A stretch of 64,000 nucleotides of DNA from Microgenomates group bacterium Gr01-1014_5 (GCA_007376395.1 VMGE01000007.1:8037-72036), one strand, 5' to 3'; shown: positions 2,413 to 31,324, numbered from the stretch's first letter. Notes: a model not told the origin generated them from the letters alone. Translations and numbers: made by a program.

Positions 2413-2438
2413 TGTACAATATATTAATATATCGTACA
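2413..2438. promoter_or_regulatory. 26-bp palindrome copy 1 (TGTACAATATATTAATATATCGTACA; one mismatch to the perfect form), 2 nt upstream of the ATG at 2441
   Basis: Read directly; the same element recurs at 2857 and 14926. Confidence 0.6.
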
Positions 2439-2440
2439 TC

Positions 2441-2848
2441 ATGCCTCATTTATCAAAACGAAAACTAAATCCACAAGTAGAAATTGAACTCATTGACTCA
2501 CTTGAATATATCCTGTCGCACTCTAAGCCCGACGAATTGAAGAAGATCCTCTCCTCGCTCTTATCCAAGACAGAAAGATTAATGATGGCAAAAAGACTCG
2601 GAGTAGTATTGATGATTCAGGAGCAAGTATCTGCAACAGAAATTGATAATATTCTCAAAGTAACAAGGTCAACAATAGAAAAGATTGAAATGAAGTTGGA
2701 GACAAAGTTGGACGGATTTCTGATCGCTCTTAAAAAACTTGGGCAGAGAAAAACTGAAATTAAACTCAAAACCCTTCTTTTGGGTTTGACAAAATATGCT
2801 GTCGAATCTGCTTTGGGAAAAACCCCGACAAAATTACCAGGAACCTGA
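2441..2848 (+). CDS. TrpR/YerC-like helix-turn-helix DNA-binding protein
   Basis: 135 aa. The segment ERLMMAKRLGVVLMIQEQVSATEIDNILKVTRSTIEKI resembles the Trp-repressor/YerC HTH core. The gene is bracketed by two copies of the 26-bp palindrome. Confidence 0.5.
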   Translation: MPHLSKRKLNPQVEIELIDSLEYILSHSKPDELKKILSSLLSKTERLMMAKRLGVVLMIQEQVSATEIDNILKVTRSTIEKIEMKLETKLDGFLIALKKLGQRKTEIKLKTLLLGLTKYAVESALGKTPTKLPGT

Positions 2849-2856
2849 GCCCGTTG

Positions 2857-2882
2857 TGTACGATATATTAATATATCGTACA
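2857..2882. promoter_or_regulatory. 26-bp perfect palindrome copy 2 (TGTACGATATATTAATATATCGTACA)
   Basis: Perfect dyad; lies 40 nt upstream of tRNA-Trp and directly after the TrpR-like gene. Confidence 0.6.
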
Positions 2883-2922
2883 TTAGAAATTGGGTTCATT
2901 TTCAGGTATAATAGAAGCGTTC

Positions 2923-2993
2923 AGGGATGTCGTTCAGTGGTAGGACACCGGTCTCCAAAACCGGTAACGAGTGTTCGATTCACTCCACCCCTG
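2923..2993 (+). tRNA. tRNA-Trp (anticodon CCA)
   Basis: Acceptor AGGGATG/CACCCCT with one A-C mismatch at 5:68, D-arm GTTC/GGAC, anticodon stem CCGGT/ACCGG with loop CTCCAAA, T-arm GAGTG-TTCGATT-CACTC. A TATAAT box lies at 2907-2912. Confidence 0.8.
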
Positions 2994-4454
2994 CAAGTCC
3001 GAACGCACTTCGGGTTGAAGTAGTATATCGAAGGGCTTTCTGAAGCTAAACTCCAAGTTTTTATCCCTCAAAAGTAGGTTCCAACCGACACTTCTTATCA
3101 AATCTCGTTTTTTCTCATTATTCCCCTTCTCCATAATCTCTCGTGCCTGAAAAGCCGTTTCAAAGAAATTTTCAGCACGTTCCAACCAAGAATCTAAAGT
3201 TCCTTCTCTGTCGTTTGTCTTTTCTTCCAACTCCATTTTTTCTTCTATAAGTTTTTTCTTGTTATCAGCGTATTCTTCTTCTGTGATTCTTTCGTCTAGC
3301 CTCATATTTAGTAAAACTCCCAGTCTCTTGTCAACCTTAGTCTTTTGCTCTTCTAAACGCTTCCTTGTACTAATACTTTCTTCAATTTCTTGACCGTGTT
3401 TTGCTTTTAAAAGCTCTACGCCAAGTTCCCAAACTTCCTTATCAATCGTTATTCGAGACAAATTATTAAATAGCATTCCTTCTAACTCTTGTTCAGTTAC
3501 TCCAGGCTCTTTACAAACTCCCCTTCGCCTGGTGCAACGATAATAAGTGTAGCTTGCGTCTCTATTAGTTCGAGCGTAATGTTTTTCCTTTGTCTCTGCG
3601 GTTATGTAGCACCCACAGGGACACTTTATTAAGCCTTTGTAGGCATGAATCCAACTTTGCTTTCTAGGCACGCCTTTGCCCTTTAAAACAAGCTGAACTT
3701 GGTCAAATAATTCCTTACTTATCAATGGCTCATAACTTCCTTGGTGAAACTCGCCTCCGTGTTGAAATAAACCATAATACAAAGGTCTGGTTAACAATTT
3801 ATACATTGCGCTTTTAGGAATATTTATACCTGTTTTAGTTTTCAAACCCCATTCAACCGATTTTCTACATATCTCTAAAACCGAGGAGTTACCTTTTGCG
3901 TATTCTTCAAACAATCTTTTCACCAAAGAAGCAGTTTCAGGGTTAGGGGCAATATTTCTTGAATTTCCAGCTTTTACGTTTATATATCCCAAAGGTGAAG
4001 CTCCAACATATTCGCCTCTTGCACATTTCTGCCTATTCCCTCTTTTAACATTTGCACTAATTTGTCTTGAAAGGTCGTTTGACATTCCAAAATGCAAATA
4101 AAGCATTACCCTGTTGTCTTCCTGTTTAAATAATTCATAAGGGGTTCTTATTTCTTTTAAGAAGCCGTCATCAATTGCTTGTATAACTCTACCACCGTCT
4201 CTTGCGTTCCTTGCAAGCCTATCAACTTTCCAACACAAAATGCCGTCTGCAAGTTTCTGCTCATACATTACCATTAGCTTTTCAAATATAGGCCTGCCTG
4301 GTTTATATGCGCTCTGCGATTCTTCTAAAATGTCTATTACGCTTAAATTGTTTCTTTGAGCATATTCTTGTAACTCCCTCTTTTGTGCCTCAATTGAGAG
4401 TGCCTGACGGTCTTCACTTTCACTACTCTTGCGACAATAAATTATGTATCTCAT
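2934..4454 (-). CDS. large serine recombinase (resolvase catalytic domain + recombinase domain + zinc ribbon + coiled coil)
   Basis: N-terminus YCRKSSESEDRQALSIEAQ...VDRLARNARD (catalytic Ser). C-terminal CPCGC...YYRC..C zinc ribbon and a Glu/Lys-rich coiled coil. The 3' end (2934-2993) overlaps tRNA-Trp antisense. Confidence 0.85.
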   Translation of the reverse strand: MRYIIYCRKSSESEDRQALSIEAQKRELQEYAQRNNLSVIDILEESQSAYKPGRPIFEKLMVMYEQKLADGILCWKVDRLARNARDGGRVIQAIDDGFLKEIRTPYELFKQEDNRVMLYLHFGMSNDLSRQISANVKRGNRQKCARGEYVGASPLGYINVKAGNSRNIAPNPETASLVKRLFEEYAKGNSSVLEICRKSVEWGLKTKTGINIPKSAMYKLLTRPLYYGLFQHGGEFHQGSYEPLISKELFDQVQLVLKGKGVPRKQSWIHAYKGLIKCPCGCYITAETKEKHYARTNRDASYTYYRCTRRRGVCKEPGVTEQELEGMLFNNLSRITIDKEVWELGVELLKAKHGQEIEESISTRKRLEEQKTKVDKRLGVLLNMRLDERITEEEYADNKKKLIEEKMELEEKTNDREGTLDSWLERAENFFETAFQAREIMEKGNNEKKRDLIRSVGWNLLLRDKNLEFSFRKPFDILLQPEVRSDLQGWSESNTRYRFWRPVSYH

Positions 4455-4612
4455 AAACTAATTGTATTCCTTTTTTACAACAGTCTCCATAAATGCTAGC
4501 AAATTTTGCATTATCTCTTCTGCTTCTTGGTTAGATATCTCTCGACCGTATTTTTTACCAAAAACTAGTTTGGTTTTATTTATCAACGCTGTTTGTTTAT
4601 AAGATGAATTTA

Positions 4613-5101
4613 TCATTCCATGTTTTGGTGTTTGTGAATACCATTGGTACTTCTAAAAGATTTTCTCTTCTTTCGAAACCTGAGATCGTAAGTGAAATAT
4701 GCTGAAGGGTTAGTTCGTATTGCTCCACGTAAGTATTCTTTTTCTGTCTGTAGAAATGCCCAATTTAAAGCTCTTGGCGTATAAGTCTGAGCAATCCATA
4801 ACCAATGCCCATCTTTGCTAGCCCAAGGTTTAAAAAGTTCTTCTAAGAATGCGGAGACTTGGATTGGCGGGGTATCTGATGTACATTGTTTTAATAGGGA
4901 AATAACTTTGGATTTATCCCAACTTAACTCTGAATTAACTCCGTTTTTATAGGCACCATTAACACTTCCATTAACACTAACACTTCCCCATTCCTTCTCT
5001 GATTCTTCTTTTATGTTTTCCCATATCCATTGTTGGTCATCTAAAGATAACGCAGACGATTCGCAAAACCATTGAGGTCTGTTATTATTTTTCGGTTCCA
5101 T
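4613..5101 (-). CDS. hypothetical protein (island cargo)
   Basis: 162-aa ORF downstream of the recombinase on the same strand. No recognisable motif. Confidence 0.4.
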   Translation of the reverse strand: MEPKNNNRPQWFCESSALSLDDQQWIWENIKEESEKEWGSVSVNGSVNGAYKNGVNSELSWDKSKVISLLKQCTSDTPPIQVSAFLEELFKPWASKDGHWLWIAQTYTPRALNWAFLQTEKEYLRGAIRTNPSAYFTYDLRFRKKRKSFRSTNGIHKHQNME

Positions 5102-5286
5102 AAGTTCTGTTTAAAGCTTCCTCTACTAGGCTTTTAAGACTTTTTTTGGAGCTTGCACGAAGCAGTTGAAGCACTTTCCACCACCCGGTATCGATTCGAA
5201 CCTGGAATGACATTTTTTTGTCGACATTCTCTTTGTTCTCATGCATCTTTTTGTTAGTCATTATTATTTTTTAGGCACAAAAAAAC

Positions 5287-5309
5287 CGCCTGCATTTCTT
5301 TGCAGCCGG
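5287..5309 (-). terminator. hairpin flanked by an A/T run (terminator-like for minus-strand transcription)
   Basis: CGCCTGCA-tttctt-TGCAGCCGG, followed by a T-run on the minus strand. No obvious upstream minus-strand gene, so the role is uncertain. Confidence 0.2.
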
Positions 5310-5420
5310 TTCTCGCTTACAAGGCTAAACTCTGACTAACTCGTATTGTAACACAAAGTCGATTTGTCTACAATAAAATAATCGCATGTAGTTTTCAATT
5401 CGGGACTCCAAGGAATATAA

Positions 5421-6248
5421 TTGCTCATGTCCAAGAAAAAGTTATCATCAGAATCTCAAGAAAATAAATTTACCCTTGCTTCTGTATTTAATTCAATTAA
5501 ATACCTGTTTATTTTAATTCTTTTAATCCTTATTGGTTTTGTAAGTTCAGATATAATTAACAAAGAAAAGTCGCAACAAAACCAGTCATCATCGGTGACA
5601 ACAACTGCACCAATAGGTATTGTTTCGCCATCTCTAGAACCTACCTCTCAAATAGACTCCCCCTCAAATAAAATTACAAAAAAGGAAGCCGATCCTATTG
5701 TGAATTGCGGACCAGGATCAACATCGAAACAATATGTTAAAGACAGAAGTAGTAATTGTCCTAATTATGTAGATTGCGGTTTAAATAATAATTCTGTTTA
5801 CACCATGATGCTTAAAACTGAGTGTGCAAAAAAGCATGCTGAAGAAAATTCAGCAAAACAACCTTCTCGCACCGCATCTAATCTTGTTACTTGTGTTGGG
5901 AGTGGTGGAAAAGTTTATAAGTTACCACCTGAATACTGTGATAGAGTTGTTCAACTAAGATTATTGGTGGAACAATCTAAGATTTCTACTCAACAGTCAA
6001 TAGATAATTTAAAAAGGATTGTTGAAGACGGTCAAGCAGCCAACCAGCGCATGCTAGACGAAGTAAAATCTTATCCTACCCCAACTCCTCTACCTAATAA
6101 TTTGTTTGGGGATTGGAAACCCACACCGTTTGAGCCCCCAAAACAGAAATGCTATACAACCTGGGAAGAATACTGTATAGCGCATCCAACTGCCTGTAAT
6201 GCCCCAATATATGGAGATGTTACTTTGGGCTCTCCACCTTGTGATTAA
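5421..6248 (+). CDS. hypothetical membrane-anchored secreted protein, Cys-rich C-terminal half
   Basis: N-terminal TM/signal anchor (YLFILILLILIGFV), a Ser/Thr-rich linker, and many Cys in the C-terminal part. Confidence 0.4.
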   Translation: MLMSKKKLSSESQENKFTLASVFNSIKYLFILILLILIGFVSSDIINKEKSQQNQSSSVTTTAPIGIVSPSLEPTSQIDSPSNKITKKEADPIVNCGPGSTSKQYVKDRSSNCPNYVDCGLNNNSVYTMMLKTECAKKHAEENSAKQPSRTASNLVTCVGSGGKVYKLPPEYCDRVVQLRLLVEQSKISTQQSIDNLKRIVEDGQAANQRMLDEVKSYPTPTPLPNNLFGDWKPTPFEPPKQKCYTTWEEYCIAHPTACNAPIYGDVTLGSPPCD

Positions 6249-6257
6249 ATAAGTTTC

Positions 6258-6536
6258 TTATAATCCCTTTCCGTGAAGGCAATAATCATAATGGATTTTC
6301 ATTTTATCCCTAATGGTCTCACCAACATCACCATCGATAAAACCATCATTAATCACATCCCCTGTTCTGTCAGGATCGGCATCAGCCTTTTGAAAAGATT
6401 CTGAATAGAATTGACCTGTGCTTTTGGTGCAATCCTGTTTAGCCCAAGAAGGTCGAAGTTGAAACCAATAAAACAATCCAGCAACCAGAAACAAAATAAT
6501 TATTAAATACCTATGTTTAATTAGGATTTTCTGCAC
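6258..6536 (-). CDS. hypothetical small membrane-anchored protein
   Basis: 92 aa with an N-terminal hydrophobic helix. Confidence 0.35.
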   Translation of the reverse strand: MQKILIKHRYLIIILFLVAGLFYWFQLRPSWAKQDCTKSTGQFYSESFQKADADPDRTGDVINDGFIDGDVGETIRDKMKIHYDYCLHGKGL

Positions 6537-6555
6537 TGACTAAATTATATAATAT

Positions 6556-6924
6556 TTATACATTTGTTTTACTAATCTTTTCTTCTATTTCATCTAACCT
6601 TTTAACAACATTTGATGCGTCATAAGCATCTAACCAGCACCTTGTTAAAAATCCCATGGAGCTTCCCACAGGCACGGGCACACCTTCAGACCAAACGGCA
6701 TTAATCACTTTACCTAAGAACCTTTTAACATCTTCTGGTGTCTCTAGCTTAATAGTTGATCCGTAGAAGCCCTGTAAAGCTCTATTGCGACCACCTTTAA
6801 TGCTAGCTACCATTTTAGCTTCATTGTTTGCAGGATCATGCCTGAAACAATAATCCTTACCTCTTTGTGTATGGGCTTTGCAAGGGTTACTGTTAGATAG
6901 AGTTTGTTTGCAACTTGTTGGCAT
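6556..6924 (-). CDS. hypothetical protein with N-terminal Cys/His cluster (zinc-finger-like)
   Basis: CKQTLSNSNPCKAHTQRGKDYCFRHDP at the N-terminus. Confidence 0.35.
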   Translation of the reverse strand: MPTSCKQTLSNSNPCKAHTQRGKDYCFRHDPANNEAKMVASIKGGRNRALQGFYGSTIKLETPEDVKRFLGKVINAVWSEGVPVPVGSSMGFLTRCWLDAYDASNVVKRLDEIEEKISKTNV

Positions 6925-6927
6925 GAG

Positions 6928-7239
6928 TTATTTAGTTGACCGCATGCCTAGTATTGGAGGCTGCAACCCTGTTTTTCTAGTAATTTCCAGTAATTCTGGT
7001 ATTTCCTGCTCCTCTAAAATTGGTACACTTGTGCAATTCAAACCAGTCATAAATCTAATTACATTAGATGTCTTACATTCTGCACAAATTCCATGTTGGT
7101 ATTTTTTGCATTTACCCAGTTTATGCTCCTCTGTACACATACAAGGATCTTCACCGCAAAAGCAAAACCACATAACCTCATCCTTATTTATAATGCTAAC
7201 TTTCTTTTCAATATTTCTTAACCTAGTTGATGTATTCAT
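6928..7239 (-). CDS. hypothetical Cys-rich small protein (zinc-ribbon-like)
   Basis: CFCGEDPCMCTEEHKLGKCKKYQHGICAECK cluster; 103 aa. Confidence 0.35.
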   Translation of the reverse strand: MNTSTRLRNIEKKVSIINKDEVMWFCFCGEDPCMCTEEHKLGKCKKYQHGICAECKTSNVIRFMTGLNCTSVPILEEQEIPELLEITRKTGLQPPILGMRSTK

Positions 7240-7379
7240 AACTTAGTTGTAGGGGGTACCCAGATTTCCACCATTTTCCAACAATTTTGAAGCTACAAGT
7301 TTTTGTCTGATAGTTGGCAATTCAGATATTATCTCATAAGCATCAATGTTATAATTTGCCTTTGTCAGTATGAGCAGTT

Positions 7380-8129
7380 TTGTATATGAATTTTGACACA
7401 ACATTAGATTATAATTTCCAAAAATACCCGTGGTTTTCCCCACATCTTGTTGTGATAGCAACTAATAGGCTGGCTAAATTATACGGGAGCAACATTGAAA
7501 ACAAGCGAGAGTTCAAACTTGCCAGAGAAATGTTTATCGGAGCAGTTGCACTATTGGGTGCCTATGAATTACATATCGACAACAAATACATTATGCAGCC
7601 AAATTTACAAAGTGCTTCGCCTGATGTAGTTGCAGTTAAACAAACAGAAGCTCCTCCTTCACCTTTGTTATTAGAGGTAACCCAATTGGAAATAGTAGAT
7701 ATGAACGACTATTCGGATGTTTCAGATGTCGTCGAATTTTTAAAAAAGACAAAACTTTCTAAAAAAAAGAGTTATGACAACAAAACACTAATCGTTTGCG
7801 TGATAAATAAGCGAATACAAATAAATAGATTGAAAATTTCCGAAGAATTAGAGAAAGTTAAGCCTAAATCAACCATCTACGTTTTAGGCAAGATTCGAGG
7901 AGATAATGATAAATGGGCAATCTTTTCCCCATATCCTGACCCAACGAAGTTTGCAATTTACAGCGTCTCAGAAACAATGAAGAAATATAATATACCCACC
8001 CCTTTGAGGTTGCATAAAGGTACAGCAAGGAAAATATCTTACGAAAAAACTCATCCAGAGGTAACCACAATCTACGACATATTTAACCTTAAAGAGTCAG
8101 ACCTGGAAAAATATCGGAGAACCAGCTAG
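7380..8129 (+). CDS. hypothetical protein
   Basis: 249-aa ORF. It overlaps a 72-aa antisense ORF (7243-7461), and the true start may lie downstream. Confidence 0.3.
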   Translation: MYMNFDTTLDYNFQKYPWFSPHLVVIATNRLAKLYGSNIENKREFKLAREMFIGAVALLGAYELHIDNKYIMQPNLQSASPDVVAVKQTEAPPSPLLLEVTQLEIVDMNDYSDVSDVVEFLKKTKLSKKKSYDNKTLIVCVINKRIQINRLKISEELEKVKPKSTIYVLGKIRGDNDKWAIFSPYPDPTKFAIYSVSETMKKYNIPTPLRLHKGTARKISYEKTHPEVTTIYDIFNLKESDLEKYRRTS

Positions 8130-8252
8130 TGAATTTATATAATGTTAACTAGCATAAAACACACTGTTTGCCCGATAATAAGTTCCAACACTGTATACTA
8201 AGGCCTGCTAACGTAGTTAATGTACTCTACAAGTCCATGGTAAAATTGTTCT

Positions 8253-8861
8253 ATGCCTGAAGTCCCCGATTCTCTTGATTCTGCAGAAATGGCTAGGTCA
8301 TTTGCAGAAAGAATTTTCTCTAAATATCCCAACACGACTGAGTCTCTCAAATGGTTAAAGGAAAATGGGGCAGAATTTATAACCCGGGTTGTAGACTTTA
8401 ACGCTGTTGTCGCCAAATTAAATGAGGTTATTGAAAATCCCAGTTCGGTAAATGAGCAGTATAGGGGTGAGATTGACCAATTGGTTAGTGTTGCGGGTGG
8501 ACATATCCCCATGCTTCAAGAAGCTGAATTTGAAACCAATGAAAAATTTCGTCATTCTCCTGCTCTTAAAGCCTTCTTCCAAGGCAAAAGGGAGTTTGGA
8601 TGGGCTGATGAAGAATACGACCCTAATAGACCTGCCAGATCAGCAATGGGTATATTTCTAGAGGGATACGGGAGATACGTTGGCCTGCGACTAACAAAGG
8701 AGCCTGAACAGGTTGCAAAAATCCAAAAAGCGTTCGTTTATGCATTTGAAGCTGTTCTTTTAGCAGAACATCCAAATTCTGAACTACTTGGAGATATCAG
8801 AGAATGGATCAAGGGAGATGCCGACAAGTTTTCTGAACCCATCCGCCAGTTATTGAAATAG
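8253..8861 (+). CDS. hypothetical protein
   Basis: 202-aa ORF, acidic, no recognised motif. Confidence 0.4.
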   Translation: MPEVPDSLDSAEMARSFAERIFSKYPNTTESLKWLKENGAEFITRVVDFNAVVAKLNEVIENPSSVNEQYRGEIDQLVSVAGGHIPMLQEAEFETNEKFRHSPALKAFFQGKREFGWADEEYDPNRPARSAMGIFLEGYGRYVGLRLTKEPEQVAKIQKAFVYAFEAVLLAEHPNSELLGDIREWIKGDADKFSEPIRQLLK

Positions 8862-8922
8862 ATTCCAACATAGTTTACCAGGACCTGCTTTTCTGCCCTA
8901 TAGTTGACATACCTTCTTTTTA

Positions 8923-9309
8923 ATGTTAGTATTTTCCAATATGCTACGTGCGGAAAGAAATTTTGTTGTTCCTGAAGAGCTTGCAACTAGTGTGTATAGA
9001 GGTATACATACAGGCAGTGGAGTTGGTAGATCGTGGGAGCGCGAACTTAGAGAAGCTCTTAAAGAACATTTAGGTCTTGGACTTACGGCAACTACTTCTC
9101 CCGAATACACAGTAATAGGTGTTCTGCTTATTAGTTACATAACATCTTCAACACATTTAATTGGAATGTTGGAGGGGAGAAATCCTGAAGTTGTTCAGAC
9201 ACAAGTTCGTGAATATCTTCAGTTCAATCCATTAGAGACTCCCCAAGAAACAGTTGAAAGATTGTTAAATATTGCTATAGATAATAGTCAGAGGATTAAT
9301 TCTCGTTAA
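8923..9309 (+). CDS. hypothetical protein
   Basis: 128-aa ORF. Confidence 0.35.
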   Translation: MLVFSNMLRAERNFVVPEELATSVYRGIHTGSGVGRSWERELREALKEHLGLGLTATTSPEYTVIGVLLISYITSSTHLIGMLEGRNPEVVQTQVREYLQFNPLETPQETVERLLNIAIDNSQRINSR

Positions 9310-9349
9310 AAACTACGGGTGCATGATCCGGTTACTGTAATAAGTCCCG

Positions 9350-9850
9350 GTGCGGTTTACCAAACCCTGCTTAACCTTGAATGGTATACTTTCTTCTGTG
9401 AATAATTTATACAAAAATTCTAAATTTTTAACCCAAGCTGAGTTTGAAAAAATTGAAACAGCACTCGAAAGGGCTTGGGGCAGAGATACAACTTATCCTG
9501 ATACAAAAGACTCCTGGTCTGAAGAAAATAAAGCTTATGGCCAATGCGCCGTCACTTCATTAATTGTCAACGACCTATATGGCGGAAAAATGATTTATGA
9601 CAAAAATAACTTCCATATTTGGAACGAACTTCCTGACGGATCACAACAAGACTTCTCAAGAAAACAATTTTTGGATGAAAGAAATTTTGTGATTTATAAA
9701 TACAAAACAAAAGAAGACGTGCTGTTTGATGAAACCGGGACAAGGACACAAATCAGTGATAGATATAAACTTCTTAAGAAAAAATTTCAGGAAGAATATA
9801 AAACTCGTTTCAAAACTCACGCGCTAGCTTCGCTAACTTGTGTAAGGTGA
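9350..9850 (+). CDS. hypothetical protein (possible YunG-like fold)
   Basis: SW...NKAYGQCAVTSLIVNDLYGGKM resembles small conserved hypothetical proteins of the YunG type; weak. Confidence 0.35.
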   Translation: MRFTKPCLTLNGILSSVNNLYKNSKFLTQAEFEKIETALERAWGRDTTYPDTKDSWSEENKAYGQCAVTSLIVNDLYGGKMIYDKNNFHIWNELPDGSQQDFSRKQFLDERNFVIYKYKTKEDVLFDETGTRTQISDRYKLLKKKFQEEYKTRFKTHALASLTCVR

Positions 9851-9932
9851 GTTGAGAGAACCTGTTTTGAAACAGGTTCATAGTAAGTTGACTTATATCC
9901 TAGAGTAATGTAGACTACCTACTCTAGCTATT

Positions 9933-10619
9933 ATGATAACTGAAATTAGAAACGTTCAAGAGGATTATTTTATCAGAAGTAAAGAGGGCTTTGACCTTGC
10001 TTCTCCTCGAACACAACGCGCCTTGGAAGTTATGTGGAAACTGGCTTCTATTCCAGTGCCTCAAACTCCTCAGTTGAGTGGCGAAATAGACATTAAAGAC
10101 TTATTCACGGATTCGTCACTTATAGTTGACTTAGAAATATTAGAACAAGCTGGTCTTGTCACTCAAGACGCCGCACACCGAAGAAGAAAACGACTGGTCG
10201 AAGGGTTGGGTAAGGTTTTACACCCAGAGGGCACAGAAAATACTATTTTGATAGAACGTCTTCCCAAAGAACAAGGTTTGGGGTTTATTCTAACTGCAAG
10301 ATTTCTCGAAGTTGAAGATACTAACCAACTGAATTCTTCGGGCGTAGAAAGGCTTGATCACATCAAATGCGACAAAATGACTTTAATACTGATAGATAAA
10401 AAATATACCGTGTCTTTACAGCAAATAATTCTCGACCCGCGTTCACATCGCTATATCCACGGGACGGACAGAACATGGGTACCATTAGATTCAGTCGAAC
10501 CTGAATATAAAGATAAAAAAATTACATCAAAAGATATTAATATTATGTTGACTCTTTTAGCTGAAGGTCTTTTTTCGGGTTCTGTAGTTGGCAAAGCGCG
10601 GTCAATTCGGCTAGCATAA
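9933..10619 (+). CDS. hypothetical protein
   Basis: 228-aa ORF. Confidence 0.4.
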   Translation: MITEIRNVQEDYFIRSKEGFDLASPRTQRALEVMWKLASIPVPQTPQLSGEIDIKDLFTDSSLIVDLEILEQAGLVTQDAAHRRRKRLVEGLGKVLHPEGTENTILIERLPKEQGLGFILTARFLEVEDTNQLNSSGVERLDHIKCDKMTLILIDKKYTVSLQQIILDPRSHRYIHGTDRTWVPLDSVEPEYKDKKITSKDINIMLTLLAEGLFSGSVVGKARSIRLA

Positions 10620-10625
10620 CACTCA

Positions 10626-11171
10626 TCAGGCAACTGTCATTAACCTGTCCATACTTCTTTCAAATTTATGCACCTCAGCCTCCCCAACTTTCTTCGATAC
10701 TTTATTCCTCTCAAGAGCATAATGACTATTAAAAAATCCCAGTAAGGCCACCCTTGCGTCATTTGTTTTTTGCGGGAAGTCCCGTAATGCCTTCGTGTTA
10801 TCAACTCCAACAAGCTGAATTGCCGAGATCAAACACAAACGCAACCCTGCCAGTGTTTCAACTTCCGGGGTTACTCTTAAGCCTTGAATCCAATATTTAT
10901 TCAACACTGCCCTGCTTGCCTGAACCACCTCACTTTCTATGATGACATATCTTTTTACTGGAACCGCAACAGGCCAAGTGCTATTAGAGGAATCCATAAT
11001 AAATGAAGGGTTTTGGAGGAGAAGTTCTTGAGCCTTTGTAACAAAAAGTAAACAGGCTCCTTCAATTCGTCCCATTCGTCGTGTGTGGTCTACTCTTAGA
11101 CCTTGTAAATAGTACTCAGCAGAGGGAAAAGCCGGAAAACCTTTGAGGGTTACTCTTTCAGCTACGGCCAT
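10626..11171 (-). CDS. hypothetical protein with internal repeat (YYLQGLRV.../YWIQGLRV...)
   Basis: 181-aa ORF with two similar halves. Confidence 0.4.
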   Translation of the reverse strand: MAVAERVTLKGFPAFPSAEYYLQGLRVDHTRRMGRIEGACLLFVTKAQELLLQNPSFIMDSSNSTWPVAVPVKRYVIIESEVVQASRAVLNKYWIQGLRVTPEVETLAGLRLCLISAIQLVGVDNTKALRDFPQKTNDARVALLGFFNSHYALERNKVSKKVGEAEVHKFERSMDRLMTVA

Positions 11172-11235
11172 TTAAAAGCATTCTACCAGACTCTTGCTCT
11201 AAGTGCTATACTTGAGGAAAGGAGGCGATACATGG

Positions 11236-11433
11236 ATGGTTGTAGTCAAACCAAAACCAGGAGAATCACAAGACAAAATGATTTTACGCTTTCGCAAGAA
11301 AGTTGTTTCTTCGGGCTTATTGCTTGAACTTCGGGATCGCGAGAGGCATAAAACTGCCTCAGAACGTCGAAAACTTAAAAAATACGACATCATACACCAG
11401 CGCGAATTGGAGAAAAAGCGCGAGGCTGTATAG
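11236..11433 (+). CDS. rpsU: 30S ribosomal protein S21
   Basis: MVVVKPKPGESQDKMILRFRKKVVSSGLLLELRDRERHKTASERRKLKK matches the S21 consensus (RFKR...G.L.E.R.R..Y.KP..RK.K). GGAGG lies 10 nt upstream of the ATG. Confidence 0.7.
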   Translation: MVVVKPKPGESQDKMILRFRKKVVSSGLLLELRDRERHKTASERRKLKKYDIIHQRELEKKREAV

Positions 11434-11596
11434 AGATACAGTTAATCGAGCTGTAGATTTTTGAGAAATTCGCGGAAGTTCGCGCCCGCCTCATGCTTTA
11501 GGTAAAAAACGGGTTCCGAAGCCGGCAACAGGAATTACGGCCTTACGCACCTTTGACATTGTCTTTCAGTATATAGGTGTGATATAATACTTGACA

Positions 11597-11620
11597 AGAG
11601 CTGGTAAAAAAGCTCTTTTT
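11597..11620 (+). promoter_or_regulatory. hairpin plus T-tract immediately upstream of secE (attenuator/terminator-like), with TTGACA at 11591-11596
   Basis: AGAGCT-ggtaaaaa-AGCTCT followed by TTTTTCTTT, lying 8 nt before the secE ATG. Confidence 0.3.
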
Positions 11621-11627
11621 CTTTGCA

Positions 11628-11807
11628 ATGAATCCTGTTACTTTCCTGCGTGAAGTCAAGTCAGAAATGGAAAAAGTCGTCTGGCCTACCCGTAACCAGG
11701 CAGTTCAACTTACCGTCATGGTTATTGCCGTCTCGGTTTTAGTTGGAGCCTATATCGGAGGATTAGACTTTATCTTTACAAACGTACTTAATTCAATAGT
11801 AAAATAG
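11628..11807 (+). CDS. secE: preprotein translocase subunit SecE
   Basis: 59 aa. KVVWPTRNQAVQLTVMVIAVSVLVGAYIGGLD matches the SecE C-terminal TM region (WP.R.E). Conserved position before nusG. Confidence 0.8.
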   Translation: MNPVTFLREVKSEMEKVVWPTRNQAVQLTVMVIAVSVLVGAYIGGLDFIFTNVLNSIVK

Positions 11808-11814
11808 CTTAAAT

Positions 11815-12609
11815 ATGGCAGATCAAGATATAAGCAAACTCAACGAAGAAACAACACCCGAAGCACCTCAAACTGAGGAAACTCCGGTTGTGGAAAATCC
11901 TACAGATGTAGTAGCGCCGGTAGATGAACAACAAGAAAGCGCATCTGTAGAAGAAATTAGGCCAGTCGAAGATATAGACGAGCCGGCAGATGCAGGAGAA
12001 ATAGAAGCTCCTCCAGAAGCAATCGAAGAGCGCGGATCCGGAAAAAAGCTTAAAGGGCATATCGTTATCACCAAAAGCAATGATCCTAACGGCCGCTGGT
12101 ATGTCGTGCACACAACTTCAGGTCATGAAGCACGGATTGCTGAAAATTTAAGACAAAGAGTCGAAACAATGGGGCTTGAGGATAAAATCTTAGAAATTCT
12201 TATCCCCACCCAAGACCGCGTTGTTATCCGCTCAGGGAAAAAATATACCATCAAAGAAAAGATTTTTCCGGGGTATTTGATTATTAAAATGATTATTACC
12301 GACGAGGCGTGGCTTGCTGTCCGCACAACTCAAGGAATTACTGGATTCGTTGGAGCAGGTACAAAACCGACTCCTCTTTCTGAAACAGAAGTAGCCAATA
12401 TTGAAAAATTTGTTTCAGCCCCAGCGGCTCGCTATAAAGTCCGGTTTTCTGTTGGCGAGGCTGTTAAAATTACAGATGGACCTTTCTCGCAGTTTTTGGG
12501 AACAATCAACGAGATGGATGAAGCCCGCGGGAAAGTTAAAGTATTGGTTTCTATTTTCGGCCGTGAAACACCGGTTGAATTGGATTTCTTACAGATTGCA
12601 AAAGTTTAA
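11815..12609 (+). CDS. nusG: transcription termination/antitermination factor NusG (with ~90-aa acidic N-terminal extension)
   Basis: NGN domain (RWYVVHTTSGHE) and C-terminal KOW (GEAVKITDGPFSQFLGTINEMD). Conserved synteny. Confidence 0.9.
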   Translation: MADQDISKLNEETTPEAPQTEETPVVENPTDVVAPVDEQQESASVEEIRPVEDIDEPADAGEIEAPPEAIEERGSGKKLKGHIVITKSNDPNGRWYVVHTTSGHEARIAENLRQRVETMGLEDKILEILIPTQDRVVIRSGKKYTIKEKIFPGYLIIKMIITDEAWLAVRTTQGITGFVGAGTKPTPLSETEVANIEKFVSAPAARYKVRFSVGEAVKITDGPFSQFLGTINEMDEARGKVKVLVSIFGRETPVELDFLQIAKV

Positions 12610-12637
12610 ACTTGTTTCGAGGACGAAAGGACGAGAA

Positions 12638-13066
12638 ATGGCAGGTAAAAAAATTAAGGTTCAAATTAAATTAAGCTTAAAAGCGGGTGAAGCAACACCG
12701 GCTCCTCCTTTGGGACCAACTCTTGCCCAACACCAAGTCCCTATTATGGACTTTGTAAAAGAATATAACGAAAGAACCGCAGAGCAGAAAGGCAACATTA
12801 TTCCTGTCGTTTTAACCGTTTACGAAGACAGAACTTTTAGTTTTATTACCAAGCTTCCTCCGGTTTCGGCCATGATTAAAAAAATTTTAGGTCTCGAAAA
12901 AGGATCAGGAGCTACCCCTAAAGAAACAGCTGGAACGCTATCTAAAGCTCAAGTTCAGGAGATTGCCCAAAGTAAATTGCCGGATTTGAATACTACCGAT
13001 TTGGAAGCGGCCGTCAAAACCGTGGAAGGCACAGCTCGAAGCATGGGAGTGAAAATTCAAGAATAA
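12638..13066 (+). CDS. rplK: 50S ribosomal protein L11
   Basis: MAGKKIKVQIKLSLKAGEATPAPPLGPTLAQHQV...; canonical L11. Confidence 0.9.
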   Translation: MAGKKIKVQIKLSLKAGEATPAPPLGPTLAQHQVPIMDFVKEYNERTAEQKGNIIPVVLTVYEDRTFSFITKLPPVSAMIKKILGLEKGSGATPKETAGTLSKAQVQEIAQSKLPDLNTTDLEAAVKTVEGTARSMGVKIQE

Positions 13067-13839
13067 TGGGAAAAACAAAACTAAATATCATCGGACAAGA
13101 AGTTGAAAAGAAAGAAAAATCTTCTAAAAAAGATCAGAAGGTTCATCTAGCTGGACTAAAAGGCGGACAGCGCGTCAAAGTTATTGATGCCGAGCCAGTA
13201 GTAGCGCAAAATATACAAGAAGTAAATGAGGTACAAAGAGAAAACACAGAACACGCGAGAGGAAAGAAATATTTAGCAGCCCGCGCCAAAGTTGATCCTA
13301 AAAAAACTTACAACATAACAGACGCCGTAAAACTACTAAAAGAAACTTCCGTCTCTAAGTTTGACGGTTCGGTGGAATTACATCTAGTTCTAGCTAAAGA
13401 CTCTCTAAACACCAGTATCGAACTTCCCCATCCCACAGGAAAAACCAGAAAAATTGAAATTGCAAATGACGCAACCGTAGAAAAATTAAAAACAGGAAAA
13501 GTAGATTTTGACGTACTTTTGGCTTCTCCAGATATAATGCACAAGCTCGTTCCGTTTGCTAAACTTTTAGGACCAAAAGGTCTAATGCCAAATCCTAAAA
13601 ACGGAACTCTTCTTCCTGACCCTGAAAAAGCCAAAGACCAGTTTGGCGGAAATAACATCAACCTTAAAACTGAAAAATCGGCGCCTCTTATACACACGGT
13701 AGTTGCCAAAACAAGCCAACCGGAGAAAGAGATAGAAGAAAATATTAAAGCAGTATTAATAAATATTGGAGAAAAGAATATCAAAAAAGCAGTTGTTTCC
13801 GCATCGATGGGACCTGGAATTCAGGTTTCTGTTGCGTAA
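13066..13839 (+). CDS. rplA: 50S ribosomal protein L1 (N-terminal extension)
   Basis: Start overlaps the rplK stop (TAATG). L1 motifs DVLLASPDIMHKLVPFAKLLGPKGLMPNPKNGT. Confidence 0.9.
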   Translation: MGKTKLNIIGQEVEKKEKSSKKDQKVHLAGLKGGQRVKVIDAEPVVAQNIQEVNEVQRENTEHARGKKYLAARAKVDPKKTYNITDAVKLLKETSVSKFDGSVELHLVLAKDSLNTSIELPHPTGKTRKIEIANDATVEKLKTGKVDFDVLLASPDIMHKLVPFAKLLGPKGLMPNPKNGTLLPDPEKAKDQFGGNNINLKTEKSAPLIHTVVAKTSQPEKEIEENIKAVLINIGEKNIKKAVVSASMGPGIQVSVA

Positions 13840-13959
13840 ACGGTTGTTTTGAGTTAAAATACACTAATCCAAAGACAGTAGGTCGAGCGAAAGCGAGATA
13901 AATCCTACCGAGGGCAAATTTATATTCGCACCTCGTGTGCGTTTTTTTGTTTTATAAGC
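13840..13959 (+). promoter_or_regulatory. ribosomal protein L10 (rplJ) leader region with attenuator hairpin CGCAC-ctcgt-GTGCG + T7 at 13927-13948
   Basis: 120-nt untranslated spacer between rplA and rplJ, containing a GC hairpin followed by a T-run. The position matches the known L10 autoregulatory leader. Confidence 0.55.
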
Positions 13960-14490
13960 ATGAAAAAGAGCGACAAACCATTAATAGTTGATAGTTTGGC
14001 TAATCAAATTAAGGAAGCCAAGAGTGTTACCGTGCTTAATTACCAAGGCATGCCAAACAAACAACTCAACGAACTTCGCCAAAAGGTGCGTGAGGCAGGT
14101 GGAATTTTCGCTGTTTCTAAAAATACTCTTATTAAACGCGCTCTTGAAAAAGTCCACGACACTCTTAATAGTCTTAATATTCTTGATACCCTGCTTGTTG
14201 GCCCAACAGCAATTATCCTCTCCCAAAAAGATGAAGTCGCTCCTTTGCAAGTATTAGGTAAATCAATCGATGAGTCTGGGTTGCCTAAACTAAAATTTGG
14301 AATTTTCGACGGCGACGTCCTAGGTCTTGAAAAACTTCTCACCTTGTCTCACTTACCGGGAAAAAATGTTTTAGCTGCTCAGCTATTGGGAGCATTAATC
14401 GCGCCAAAATATAATATGGTAGAAGTATTAAATGGTAATTTACGAAAATTGGTGTATATTCTAGACCAAAAAGCAAAGGCGGTGAATTAA
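13960..14490 (+). CDS. rplJ: 50S ribosomal protein L10
   Basis: 176-aa L10 sequence in conserved position. Confidence 0.9.
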   Translation: MKKSDKPLIVDSLANQIKEAKSVTVLNYQGMPNKQLNELRQKVREAGGIFAVSKNTLIKRALEKVHDTLNSLNILDTLLVGPTAIILSQKDEVAPLQVLGKSIDESGLPKLKFGIFDGDVLGLEKLLTLSHLPGKNVLAAQLLGALIAPKYNMVEVLNGNLRKLVYILDQKAKAVN

Positions 14491-14493
14491 GAT

Positions 14494-14922
14494 ATGGCAG
14501 ATGATCAAGTAACACAAACAGAAGAGAAGGATACAAAAACACTTTCGGCAAAACTTGAAAAAATCGTAGAAGAGCTCGAAAAGCTGACGGTTTTAGAGCT
14601 TTCCGAAGTTGTTCAAGCACTCCAAGAACGCTGGGGAGTTAGCGCTACCCCGATAGCTGGGCCAGCAGTAAGCGCAGCGCCAGCCGAGGCAGCGCCACAA
14701 GCCACAGGTGGAGTACAAACAGTTGTTCTTACGAACTCTGGAGGAAATAAAATTGCAGTCATTAAAGCTCTTCGCGAAATCAATCCTAACCTAGGATTGA
14801 AAGAAGCAAAAGACATGTCTGAAAAACTTCCGGCAGAAATATTAAAAGATGTAAAAGCAGAAGAAGCAAAAAACGCACAAGAGAAACTAACTGCGGCCGG
14901 AGCAACTGTTGAAGTTAAGTAA
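14494..14922 (+). CDS. rplL: 50S ribosomal protein L7/L12
   Basis: Ala/Pro hinge and C-terminal domain VIKALREINPNLGLKEAKD. Confidence 0.9.
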   Translation: MADDQVTQTEEKDTKTLSAKLEKIVEELEKLTVLELSEVVQALQERWGVSATPIAGPAVSAAPAEAAPQATGGVQTVVLTNSGGNKIAVIKALREINPNLGLKEAKDMSEKLPAEILKDVKAEEAKNAQEKLTAAGATVEVK

Positions 14923-14925
14923 TTT

Positions 14926-14951
14926 TGTACGATATATTAATATATCGTACA
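14926..14951. promoter_or_regulatory. 26-bp perfect palindrome copy 3 (TGTACGATATATTAATATATCGTACA)
   Basis: Identical to copy 2; lies 3 nt after the rplL stop. Confidence 0.6.
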
Positions 14952-14956
14952 TTAAA

Positions 14957-14988
14957 CAAAAATCCTGGCTATTTAGTCAGGATTTTTG
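14957..14988. terminator. bidirectional intrinsic terminator between convergent rplL and the ATP-grasp cluster
   Basis: AAAAATCCTG-gctatttagt-CAGGATTTTT: a 6-8 bp stem flanked by an A-run on one side and a T-run on the other. Confidence 0.55.
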
Positions 14989-14990
14989 TG

Positions 14991-30184: not shown

Positions 30185-31324
30185 TTGATTTTGAACCCAA
30201 AATTCTATCCTAAAAATTGCAAGCTTGACACTAAAAATCTTGGTCTTAAACCAACAGGATTATTGGTCGCGACTTCTTCTCCGGACGGCGCCCAAATATT
30301 GATTAATACTATTCTTGAATCAGCCACAAACGCCACGCTCTCCCTACCCCCTGACAGCTATGATGTAGAAATTAAGAAAGAGGGCTTTTTAACCTGGCGC
30401 AAGCGTTTAACTATTAAAAAAGAAGAAGTAACTAAGGTCGATGCCGCCCTTTTCCCTGCAGCCCCTTCGCTTTCTGCGCTTACTTTTGGAGGTGCAATTA
30501 TGCCTGTAACCTCTCCTGACGGAACGCGGATTGTTTTCGGCGTGCCAAAATCAGCCGACAACACCAAACTCGGGCTTTGGGTTATGGATCTTGGTAATTT
30601 ACCAATCGGCTTTTCGTCAGATCCCAGACAAATCACGAACCTCTCCCCTGAAACCTCTTCCTGGAGCTGGTCACCTGATTCGCGGCAGGTCCTAGTTACA
30701 ACGCAAGCCGCAGGCGGCACATATCTTCTTCCGGCAGGATCTTACACTGCAGACCGGGATTTGGTAAATATCCGCGGGGCCCGGCTTGAGAAAGTACTTG
30801 CCCAGTGGCAGGTAGAAAAGACAAACCGCCGGGAAGATGACCTTGATCTCTTACCGAGCGAAATGCGGGATTTTCTAGAAAGAAAGGCCCAAGATTTCGT
30901 TTTTTCTCCCGATGAAAACAAAGTCCTTTATATTGCATCTGCCTCTGCAAGCTTGAAAGAAGAGCTTAGATCTCAAATTCCGGGCTCTTCTACGCAAAAA
31001 CAAGAACGTGGTATCAAACAATCACAAACCTATGTATACGATATAAAAGAAGATCGTAATTTTTACATTACTGACCAGAAAGTAATTTTAAATTCTGCGC
31101 TGAGCACAATAGGCTGGTTCCTGACAGAAAATATCGTACTCGCCGAACAAAATAATGTAACTATCATGGACTACGATGGAACTAACAGACAGGTTGTTTG
31201 GTCAGGCCCTTATATTGCTCCTTACGCAATTCCTGCACCTAACGGCCAGCGATTATTCTTACTTACTCCTCTTGGGGCAGGTAGTCCAAGCTTCGCAAAC
31301 ATTTATGCGTTGGGTTTGAAGTAA
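30185..31324 (+). CDS. PEGA-domain plus beta-propeller (TolB-like) repeat protein
   Basis: PDGAQILINTILESATNATLSLPPDSYDVEIKKEGF is PEGA-like. SPDGTRIVFG and SPDSRQVLV repeats. The true start may be internal. Confidence 0.45.
   Translation: MILNPKFYPKNCKLDTKNLGLKPTGLLVATSSPDGAQILINTILESATNATLSLPPDSYDVEIKKEGFLTWRKRLTIKKEEVTKVDAALFPAAPSLSALTFGGAIMPVTSPDGTRIVFGVPKSADNTKLGLWVMDLGNLPIGFSSDPRQITNLSPETSSWSWSPDSRQVLVTTQAAGGTYLLPAGSYTADRDLVNIRGARLEKVLAQWQVEKTNRREDDLDLLPSEMRDFLERKAQDFVFSPDENKVLYIASASASLKEELRSQIPGSSTQKQERGIKQSQTYVYDIKEDRNFYITDQKVILNSALSTIGWFLTENIVLAEQNNVTIMDYDGTNRQVVWSGPYIAPYAIPAPNGQRLFLLTPLGAGSPSFANIYALGLK

Follow-up and report, generated by a model that had tools for sequence, protein, structure and literature searches.

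What is the function of a long perfect palindrome that recurs on both sides of a small regulator gene and once more behind a ribosomal protein gene, and which factor, if any, reads it? The question is raised by a 64,000-nt stretch of DNA of the Microgenomates bacterium Gr01-1014_5, a member of the candidate phyla radiation (CPR), whose bacteria have tiny genomes, few regulators, and a transcription control about which there is almost no experimental knowledge. We refer to the whole stretch as the window, and all coordinates count from its first letter. A 26-bp palindrome occurs in the window three times, before and after a gene encoding a 135-aa helix-turn-helix (HTH) protein of the TrpR family and after the gene rplL. 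Comparison with the relatives of this protein makes it very likely that the palindrome is its operator, with copy 1 as an autoregulatory site and copies 2 and 3 as further sites.

The palindrome in the window

Copy 1 (TGTACAATATATTAATATATCGTACA, 2413–2438) differs from the perfect palindrome TGTACGATATATTAATATATCGTACA by a single mismatch, A for G at position 6; copy 2 (2857–2882), the proposed second operator, and copy 3 (14926–14951), the proposed distal site, are perfect, and none of the three is assigned a strand. Copy 1 ends 2 nt before the ATG (2441) of the regulator gene (2441–2848, + strand). Copy 2 starts 8 nt past the stop codon of that gene (2848) and is separated from tRNA-Trp (2923) by 40 nt. 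Copy 3 lies between the rplL stop codon (14922), which it follows after 3 nt, and a terminator, a strong hairpin that begins 5 nt further on. A preliminary description of this DNA had reported the three copies at 2413, 2857, and 14926 with these distances and had held the triplicate not to be due to chance. Both statements were borne out; TGTACGATATATTAATATATCGTACA had no match in 100 dinucleotide-preserving shuffles, and the chance expectation is 0. The same description called the element AT-only, which is wrong, as G and C account for 6 of the 26 positions; its centre is TTAA.

No further match to TGTACGATATATTAATATATCGTACA with up to 3 mismatches is present in the window, and a search of the window with up to 9 mismatches and with half-site and degenerate patterns yielded a sole extra match at 31035, which is inside an open reading frame (ORF) and chance-like. 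No extended homology was found around the copies, and segmental duplication was rejected as their origin on this ground.

The palindrome–gene–palindrome unit across the family

A scan with the relaxed pattern GTACNATATATNNATATATNGTAC of 185,579 species, each represented by one genome, returned 5 stretches, 3 of them in metagenome-assembled genomes (MAGs) of CPR bacteria. On a Moraniibacteriota contig, two related palindromes 509 bp apart flank a 135-aa ORF of the Trp_repressor family, whose divergence put it out of reach of tblastn. Likewise, the two closest homologues of the window protein (54–57% identity) are bracketed by a palindrome of another sequence, for example TGTACAATGCATTAATGCATTGTACA, immediately before the ATG and immediately after the stop codon. 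We retrieved 80 more loci from metagenomes through a back-translation scan, for which a 15-sequence alignment was used, a 45-sequence alignment being too diverse.

In the 61 non-redundant loci with both flanks, we compared the last 70 nt ahead of the ATG with the first 70 nt behind the stop codon. The two flanks have an exact repeat of 12 nt or more in common at 42/61 family loci versus 1/243 control ORFs in the same loci; with a minimum of 14 nt, the counts were 36/61 and 0/243. An iterated position matrix gave the family consensus TGTAtcATATAT-(TA/CG)-ATATATgaTACA, that is, TGTAyc-ATATAT-TA/CG-ATATAT-gr-TACA. Matches to the matrix above 12 bits were present upstream of the gene at 53 of 72 loci and downstream at 38 of 61 loci; the remaining 356 kb of the loci held 5, mostly extra sites near the gene. 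The ATATAT core is conserved in sequence, not in pairing alone. The site–gene–site unit stands in many different genomic neighbourhoods, typically with two sites per 10 kb and one gene copy per 64 kb.

As judged from these scans, the motif is rare and is tied to the regulator gene, because matrix matches are nearly confined to the flanks of that gene. The preliminary description had allowed for a generic repeat; with so few stretches among the genomes scanned and so few matrix matches away from the flanks, this reading was rejected.

The sites vary between genomes in a characteristic way. The two copies within one genome are identical at 24/26 positions on average, as against 17.6/26 between genomes, and the changes between lineages are symmetric in both arms. 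The combination of identity within and difference between genomes therefore requires a genome-specific factor that reads the sequence.

This pattern bears on the possibility that the palindromes function, independently of any protein, as hairpins in the RNA at the 3' ends of three genes (rpmG, the regulator gene, and rplL), whether in termination, processing, or stabilization. Such a role would fit the position of every copy 3–14 nt after a + strand stop codon (of rpmG, the regulator gene, and rplL, respectively), the folding of the perfect copies at −13.3 kcal/mol (z = −5.3), and two biases of the family sites quantified below, namely a sense-strand excess of G-U-compatible mismatches and an orientation-bound asymmetry. 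However, the family's upstream copy lies between the −35 element and the ATG and hence outside the gene's own transcript, the mismatch in copy 1 weakens its hairpin to −6.2 kcal/mol, and a much stronger separate terminator follows copy 3. Furthermore, a hairpin would need no conservation of the ATATAT sequence beyond pairing, and it offers no reason why identity within a genome should track the regulator allele and its recognition-helix residue. We consider the RNA hairpin improbable.

The palindrome was also rejected as an intrinsic terminator: its stem is AT-rich, no T-run directly follows any of the three copies, and copy 3 is followed by a canonical terminator of its own. The preliminary description had judged a terminator unlikely on two of these observations, the missing T-run and the separate bidirectional terminator. 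We mapped the latter as a hairpin with A-run, stem, and T-run at 14956–14989 (no strand assigned), common to rplL and a convergent 108-aa gene. The 78-nt stretch that contains the copy-3 hairpin and the terminator hairpin folds at −33.2 kcal/mol (z = −10); a simple terminator scan did not call the hairpin at 14956–14989. In an Rfam scan of the window, only tRNAs were found, and the palindromes match no RNA family.

Additional sites were observed in some family genomes and their relatives. In the Levyibacteriota MAG JAUSNA01, TGTACGATATATCGATATATCGTACA, which is of the window type with a CG centre, occurs at L002 6101–6128 and L004 1351–1378, where it precedes tgt by about 58 nt and a xerC-like integrase gene by about 90 nt, respectively; the 8 kb of sequence available for each locus contain no TrpR-like gene. 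The tgt and integrase genes are possible members of the regulon, and neither site overlaps a core promoter. Extra family sites at L045 (667–696 and 1879–1908) and L018 (82–111) bracket neighbouring transcription units of unknown function; one of them overlaps the beginning of a convergent operon of two genes, which meets the downstream site of the regulator with its 3' end. This bracketing resembles that by copies 2 and 3 of the window. A distant member of the family (L069, 4881–5680) has seven copies of the 20-bp palindrome TTGTTCGATATATCGAACAA, two upstream of the gene and five in a non-coding stretch of ~330 bp downstream, at a spacing of 52–70 bp. The cluster looks like an operator array or an iteron- or centromere-like cluster.

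Upstream and downstream copies differ in geometry

When the loci are aligned on the ATG, many exhibit the arrangement TTGACA-N1-[26-bp palindrome]-N3–5-ATG, with a median of 4 nt between the upstream palindrome and the ATG. A −35 element (at least 5/6 match to TTGACA) directly precedes 22/53 upstream copies versus 2/38 downstream copies. A spacer of 17–18 nt puts the −10 element in the right arm of the palindrome, where it reads TATGAT at most loci and TATCGT or TAATAT in the window, and the predicted transcription start falls 0–4 nt before the ATG. No Shine-Dalgarno sequence is present before the regulator ATG in the family loci. The regulator gene is probably leaderless, and the palindrome would cover the spacer and the −10 element of its promoter; this coverage therefore indicates autorepression.

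For the window gene itself, a pattern scan placed a candidate core promoter at 2396–2435 on the + strand (TAGTCA-18-TATATT, 9/12 match), and the family geometry gives the possible alternative TTTTCA (2406–2411)-18-TATCGT (2430–2435). The overlap of promoter and operator proposed in the preliminary description agrees with the −35 elements before the family's upstream copies and with the −10-like hexamer that the pattern scan placed inside copy 1. Outside this gene, rpmG also seems to be leaderless (2205–2227), its TATACT ending 7 nt before the ATG with no Shine-Dalgarno sequence; leaderless starts may be common in this organism.

The distance from the stop codon to the downstream copy has a median of 7 nt. 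The copy is present at 14/25 loci with a co-directional next gene and at 7/15 loci with a convergent one, that is, equally often. The downstream copy is independent of the orientation of the next gene and therefore belongs to the 3' end of the regulator gene, not to a downstream promoter.

Could the palindrome instead be an AT-rich element, either a strong bidirectional promoter or UP-like, that works without a dedicated protein? The hexamers TATATT, TAATAT, and TATCGT within it and the −35 element before the upstream copy in the family would suit such a role. Nevertheless, the downstream copies and copy 3 have no −35 element and often lie between convergent genes, a promoter does not need a perfect 26-bp dyad that is repeated after the stop codon, and the outer bases, which vary, show symmetric covariation and follow the recognition helix. 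A protein-independent promoter element is thus a very unlikely explanation.

The regulator is a member of the TrpR family

The window protein matches Trp_repressor PF01371 with 39.2 bits (gathering cut-off 27; E = 7e-10), and the distant homologue L005 scores 45.7 bits against this profile. L005 was recognized by Pfam and missed by tblastn with the window protein. A word-indexed homologue search found only 3 proteins; we used an exhaustive HMMER search against representatives (E <= 1e-3) instead, which revealed a family of ~130-aa proteins in 615 clusters at 50% identity. The N-terminus MPHVS is nearly invariant in the family, and the start codon was placed at 2441 because of this conservation. 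The window holds only one member of the family. This protein is 100% identical to one from the Microgenomates group bacterium Gr01-1014_5, which places the window in the CPR.

The family profile matches the Protein Data Bank (PDB) entries 3frw, 3kor, and 3g1c at E of about 1e-10, and E. coli TrpR weakly. The AlphaFold2 (AF2) model of the window protein (predicted local distance difference test score 88.5) is all-helical, with 7 helices. The best PDB matches of the model in Foldseek are again 3frw, 3kor, and 3g1c (template modelling score normalized by the target 0.72–0.80, probability 1.00), followed by E. coli TrpR, than which the protein is ~30 residues longer; the model exhibits two extra C-terminal helices. 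The predicted recognition helix comprises residues 76–88 (helix H76-88), and its first residue is Arg76.

Scores against models of the characterized relatives are low. The HisR model TIGR02531 (YerC/YecD) gives 17.3 bits for the window protein against a cut-off of 42.2, and 17.6–35.1 for other family members; the score against the NCBIfam TrpR model is far below its cut-off. In the loci that we examined, we saw neither trp nor his genes. The sites in the window flank the regulator gene, tRNA-Trp, and rplL; the neighbouring genes are heterogeneous and of the housekeeping kind. On the basis of profiles and the structure model, the protein is a TrpR-family member of a separate CPR subfamily rather than a HisR or a TrpR. 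We filed it as a new TrpR subfamily because of the 26-bp site, the scores below the NCBIfam cut-offs, and the missing his and trp genes nearby. A literature search found no description of this TrpR-like family or of the motif. A phage origin was rejected: a viral collection of 2.9 million contigs contained no protein relatives and, at the DNA level, one match at chance level.

The first residue of the predicted recognition helix tracks the half-site

We compared the residue aligned with Arg76 with base 2 of the half-site, counted per arm. Base 2 is G in 100 of 106 arms where the residue is Arg and in 6/6 arms where it is Lys, A in 16/16 arms where it is Gln, and T in 16/16 arms at the six loci with Thr, Ser, Glu, or His. 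At the ten loci with Pro, the base is mostly A, C, or T (G in 4/38 arms). In the aligned sequences, this is the classical pairing of Arg or Lys with guanine and of Gln with adenine. One could speculate that the invariant basic N-terminal arm (MPHxSKRKL) reads the minor groove of the AT core and that the recognition helix reads the variable outer bases.

Regulator and sites changed together between close relatives

Relatives of the window were retrieved through rplL. The loci L091, L092, and L093 from Candidatus Blackburnbacteria have an rplL 94% identical to that of the window and are collinear with it, at 81–92% nucleotide identity on both sides of the regulator gene. By contrast, the L092 regulator is 39% identical to that of the window, and the two genes give no blastn alignment at the DNA level. 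One lineage has therefore replaced, or radically changed, its regulator, because this identity lies below that to the regulators of more distant genomes (54–57%). The hyper-divergent segment is bounded by the two palindromes, and the exchange occurred in situ between conserved flanks. Among the fetched loci, window and L092 are the only pair with conserved flanks and a swapped regulator.

At all three homologous positions, L092 carries palindromes of the type TGTTAC/TGTAAC...GTAACA/GTTACA: (i) the upstream site TGTTACATATATCAATATATGTAACA overlaps the ATG; (ii) the downstream site TGTAACATATATCAATATATGTTACA lies 8 nt past the stop codon and 30 nt before the TATAAT of tRNA-Trp; and (iii) the post-rplL site TGTTACATATATCGATATATGTAACA lies 15 nt past rplL and 2 nt before the terminator. 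Compared with copy 3, the post-rplL site differs at 8/26 positions, symmetrically, in a region with an overall identity of 91%. Because of this symmetric change, we assign copy 3 to the same set of sites as copies 1 and 2. A palindrome of the type proper to the relative stands directly before the terminator after rplL in L091, L092, and L093, and L094, from a third lineage whose rplL is 86% identical, has the same post-rplL site. In more distant relatives (rplL 75% and 64% identical), the terminator alone follows rplL. Copy 3 is, judged from these alignments, a conserved and selected member of the site set that follows the specificity of the regulator. With regard to the genes beyond, L092 (10525–12009) and L094 (6351–7835) have a 494-aa MATCAP-domain gene after the rplL terminator, which is missing in the window (14990); all three have retained the palindrome and the terminator as well as the convergent 107/108-aa and ATP-grasp genes.

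The swap could also be read as the exchange of a cassette. If the unit were a small mobile or exchangeable element whose HTH protein recognizes DNA and whose palindromes serve as recombination ends, in the manner of repetitive extragenic palindromic (REP) elements with their REP-associated tyrosine transposases (RAYT) or of attC sites, its occurrence in many neighbourhoods and the ending of the hyper-divergent segment at the two palindromes would follow, and the HTH has a weak similarity to the N-termini of IS630/Tc1-type transposases. The 135-aa all-helical TrpR fold, however, has no catalytic domain. With one gene per 64 kb and, as a rule, two sites per 10 kb, the unit differs from REP-type elements, which come in hundreds, and no family member was found among the viral contigs. 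Moreover, the swap left the flanks in place, and the post-rplL site, 7–12 kb away, changed along with the regulator, which fits selection for binding. A mobile cassette therefore appears quite unlikely.

Gene neighbourhood and the insertion at tRNA-Trp

The gene order in the window is tRNA-Thr/Tyr/Thr, rpmG (ending at 2398), copy 1, the regulator gene, copy 2, and tRNA-Trp, followed by the gene of a large serine recombinase, many small ORFs, an S21-like gene, secE, nusG, rplK, rplA, rplJ, rplL, and copy 3. The products of the last six genes were confirmed as SecE, NusG, L11, L1, L10, and L7/L12. The rplL gene (14494–14922, + strand) is the last of the block, with copy 3 after its stop codon. 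NusG (11815–12609) has 264 aa, of which ~90 form an N-terminal extension, acidic and rich in proline, ahead of the NusG domain; the gene calls of its relatives range from 180 to 264 aa. The tRNA-Trp gene (CCA; 2923–2994, + strand) is preceded by a promoter-like site, TAGAAA-17-TATAAT (2884–2912, + strand, 10/12 match), which starts 1 nt after copy 2. A TATAAT is also found 25–30 nt past the palindrome in L008 and L092. At L008 (1071–1390), a 5' tRNA-Trp fragment is followed by an insertion with a GIY-YIG-like peptide and then by a complete second tRNA-Trp; this insertion may be of the homing-endonuclease or intron type.

Copies 2 and 3 are separated by 12.5 kb. The preliminary description stated that the copies bracket the regulator and the secE-nusG-rplKAJL block. 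It named the genes correctly, but the block is not all that lies between copies 2 and 3, for they also enclose an insertion of ~6.9 kb (2996–9886), which carries the recombinase and is absent from L092, where 1.35 kb of different sequence takes its place. The insertion has about ten small ORFs without Pfam matches, with a YunG-like ORF (9350–9850) at or just past its edge, and is probably an integrated element with tRNA-Trp as its target. No direct repeats other than the palindrome were found around this island. The recombinase (506 aa; 2934–4454, minus strand) consists of Resolvase, Recombinase, and Zn-ribbon domains, and the 3' end of its gene overlaps tRNA-Trp.

Attachment or crossover sites of serine recombinases are imperfect inverted repeats around a central dinucleotide, and the preliminary description had offered such a role for the palindrome as an alternative. 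Copy 2 is 52 nt from the end of the recombinase ORF, and the palindrome has a central TTAA. Yet L092, without the insertion, has palindromes at all three positions, and nearly all family loci with a palindrome pair are without any recombinase. In addition, the palindromes lie outside the insertion and not at its ends, copy 1 would be outside any such element, and a segment between copies 2 and 3 would take in the essential genes from secE to rplL. The recombinase-site alternative can be set aside as having next to no likelihood.

A model of autoregulation and its weak points

The sites are real and non-random, linked to the gene family, and co-varying with the protein, and they lie in the promoter (upstream copies) or at 3' ends (all others). 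We infer that the protein physically binds the palindrome and represses its gene, possibly with a small-molecule ligand. At copy 1, the bound protein would block RNA polymerase at the regulator's own promoter and thereby cause negative autoregulation of a transcript whose predicted start coincides with the ATG or lies a few nucleotides away at most. Copies 2 and 3, which have no promoters of their own and closely follow the regulator and rplL stop codons, respectively, would be further sites of the same regulator. Copy 2 abuts the −35 element of the tRNA-Trp promoter and could modulate that promoter. The 3'-end copies would most likely serve as protein roadblocks or insulators for transcription that leaves or enters the unit; alternatively, they may be auxiliary sites that raise the occupancy of copy 1 through cooperativity or through looping over 444 bp. 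That the adjacent TrpR-like protein uses the palindrome as its operator had already been suggested in the preliminary description, and the conserved flanking pair, the −35 element, the concerted change of sites, and the helix–base correlation all fit this suggestion.

Several observations weigh against the operator model. About a quarter of the family loci have no recognizable flanking pair. A classical repressor would have no target at copy 3 or at several of the downstream copies, which are situated between convergent genes, and the extra sites in the Levyibacteriota MAG are 50–100 bp upstream of promoters and not on them. The orientation of asymmetric sites with respect to the gene is preserved (20:1), and G-U-compatible mismatches are commoner on the sense strand (50 vs 19); an RNA-level role or gene conversion would be compatible with both biases as well. 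The 26-bp span, with the centres of TGTA and TACA about 22 bp apart, may be too long for one compact TrpR-type dimer. Finally, shared ancestry partly confounds the correlation between residue 76 and base 2.

A bolder reading, which we regard as possible yet rather doubtful, is that the site–gene–site unit is a self-contained, fast-diversifying specificity module and that the protein at the post-stop palindromes forms a factor-dependent transcription boundary. It would act as a roadblock, a terminator helper, or an insulator after the regulator gene, after rplL, and between convergent genes. Close relatives would differ by a joint replacement of the regulator and its sites, which would keep the specificity private, and the L069 array of seven sites would be an elaboration of the boundary or of a nucleation function. 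Such boundaries beside the ribosomal-protein and tRNA-Trp cluster may be what the present sites point to.

For the operator model, the basic mechanism is ordinary; what is unusual is the operator pair that brackets the regulator gene, the likely leaderless promoter, and the concerted swap of regulator and sites. The analysis yields, for a large branch of the TrpR family, a testable regulator–operator pair, a predicted operator for each lineage, a candidate leaderless promoter, and the rule that Arg or Lys goes with G and Gln with A. It also provides a natural system for the co-evolution of a DNA-binding protein and its sites.

Comparison with known systems

Like REP/RAYT systems, the unit consists of a gene in single copy with a genome-specific palindrome on either side, and this palindrome is found in other intergenic regions as well. 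Unlike them, it has no Y1 transposase domain, the flanked gene encodes an HTH protein, the palindrome overlaps the promoter, and there are 2–3 copies (3 in 64 kb here; 5 extra matrix matches in 356 kb of family loci) rather than hundreds.

The LacI sites O3 and O1 illustrate that 3'-end or intragenic sites can block elongating polymerase and loop with the main operator. The likeness is a repressor site at the 3' end of the regulator gene. However, the lac 3'-end site is a weak auxiliary operator of the neighbouring operon, whereas the present 3' copy equals or surpasses the one at the promoter and is conserved throughout the family, whatever the downstream gene.

The closest characterized relative is HisR (YerC/YecD), to which the best PDB matches 3g1c, 3frw, and 3kor belong by type. 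B. subtilis YerC was identified as HisR, a histidine-dependent repressor (PMC9413887). HisR motifs are palindromic and lineage-specific, with the 20-bp cacTTTAnnnnnnTAAAgtg in Firmicutes, and about half of the hisR genes are preceded by a site of their own (PMC9413887). Operators of TrpR and of proteobacterial HisR are palindromic, 20 bp long, and end in TGTA...TACA; for TrpR, the motif is TGTAcTnGTnnACnAgTACA (PMC9413887). The present family shares with HisR the lineage-specific palindromic motifs and the own site before the regulator gene. It differs in that no his genes or transporters, which make up the HisR regulon, were seen at the present loci, and in its flanking-pair architecture, which is not described for hisR.

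In E. coli, trpR is autoregulated through an operator that overlaps the regulator's own promoter. With E. coli TrpR, which acts at the trpR, trpEDCBA, and aroH operators, the window protein shares the family (PF01371) and fold of a small all-helical HTH protein; its proposed operator is likewise a palindrome with TGTA...TACA ends and would overlap the regulator's own promoter. By contrast, the site of the present family spans 26 bp instead of 20 bp and has the core ATATAT-NN-ATATAT, no trp genes are nearby, a second site after the stop codon is the rule, and the promoter is probably leaderless. The second site after the stop codon and the concerted swap of the regulator with its three sites place this family outside the textbook picture of TrpR and HisR.

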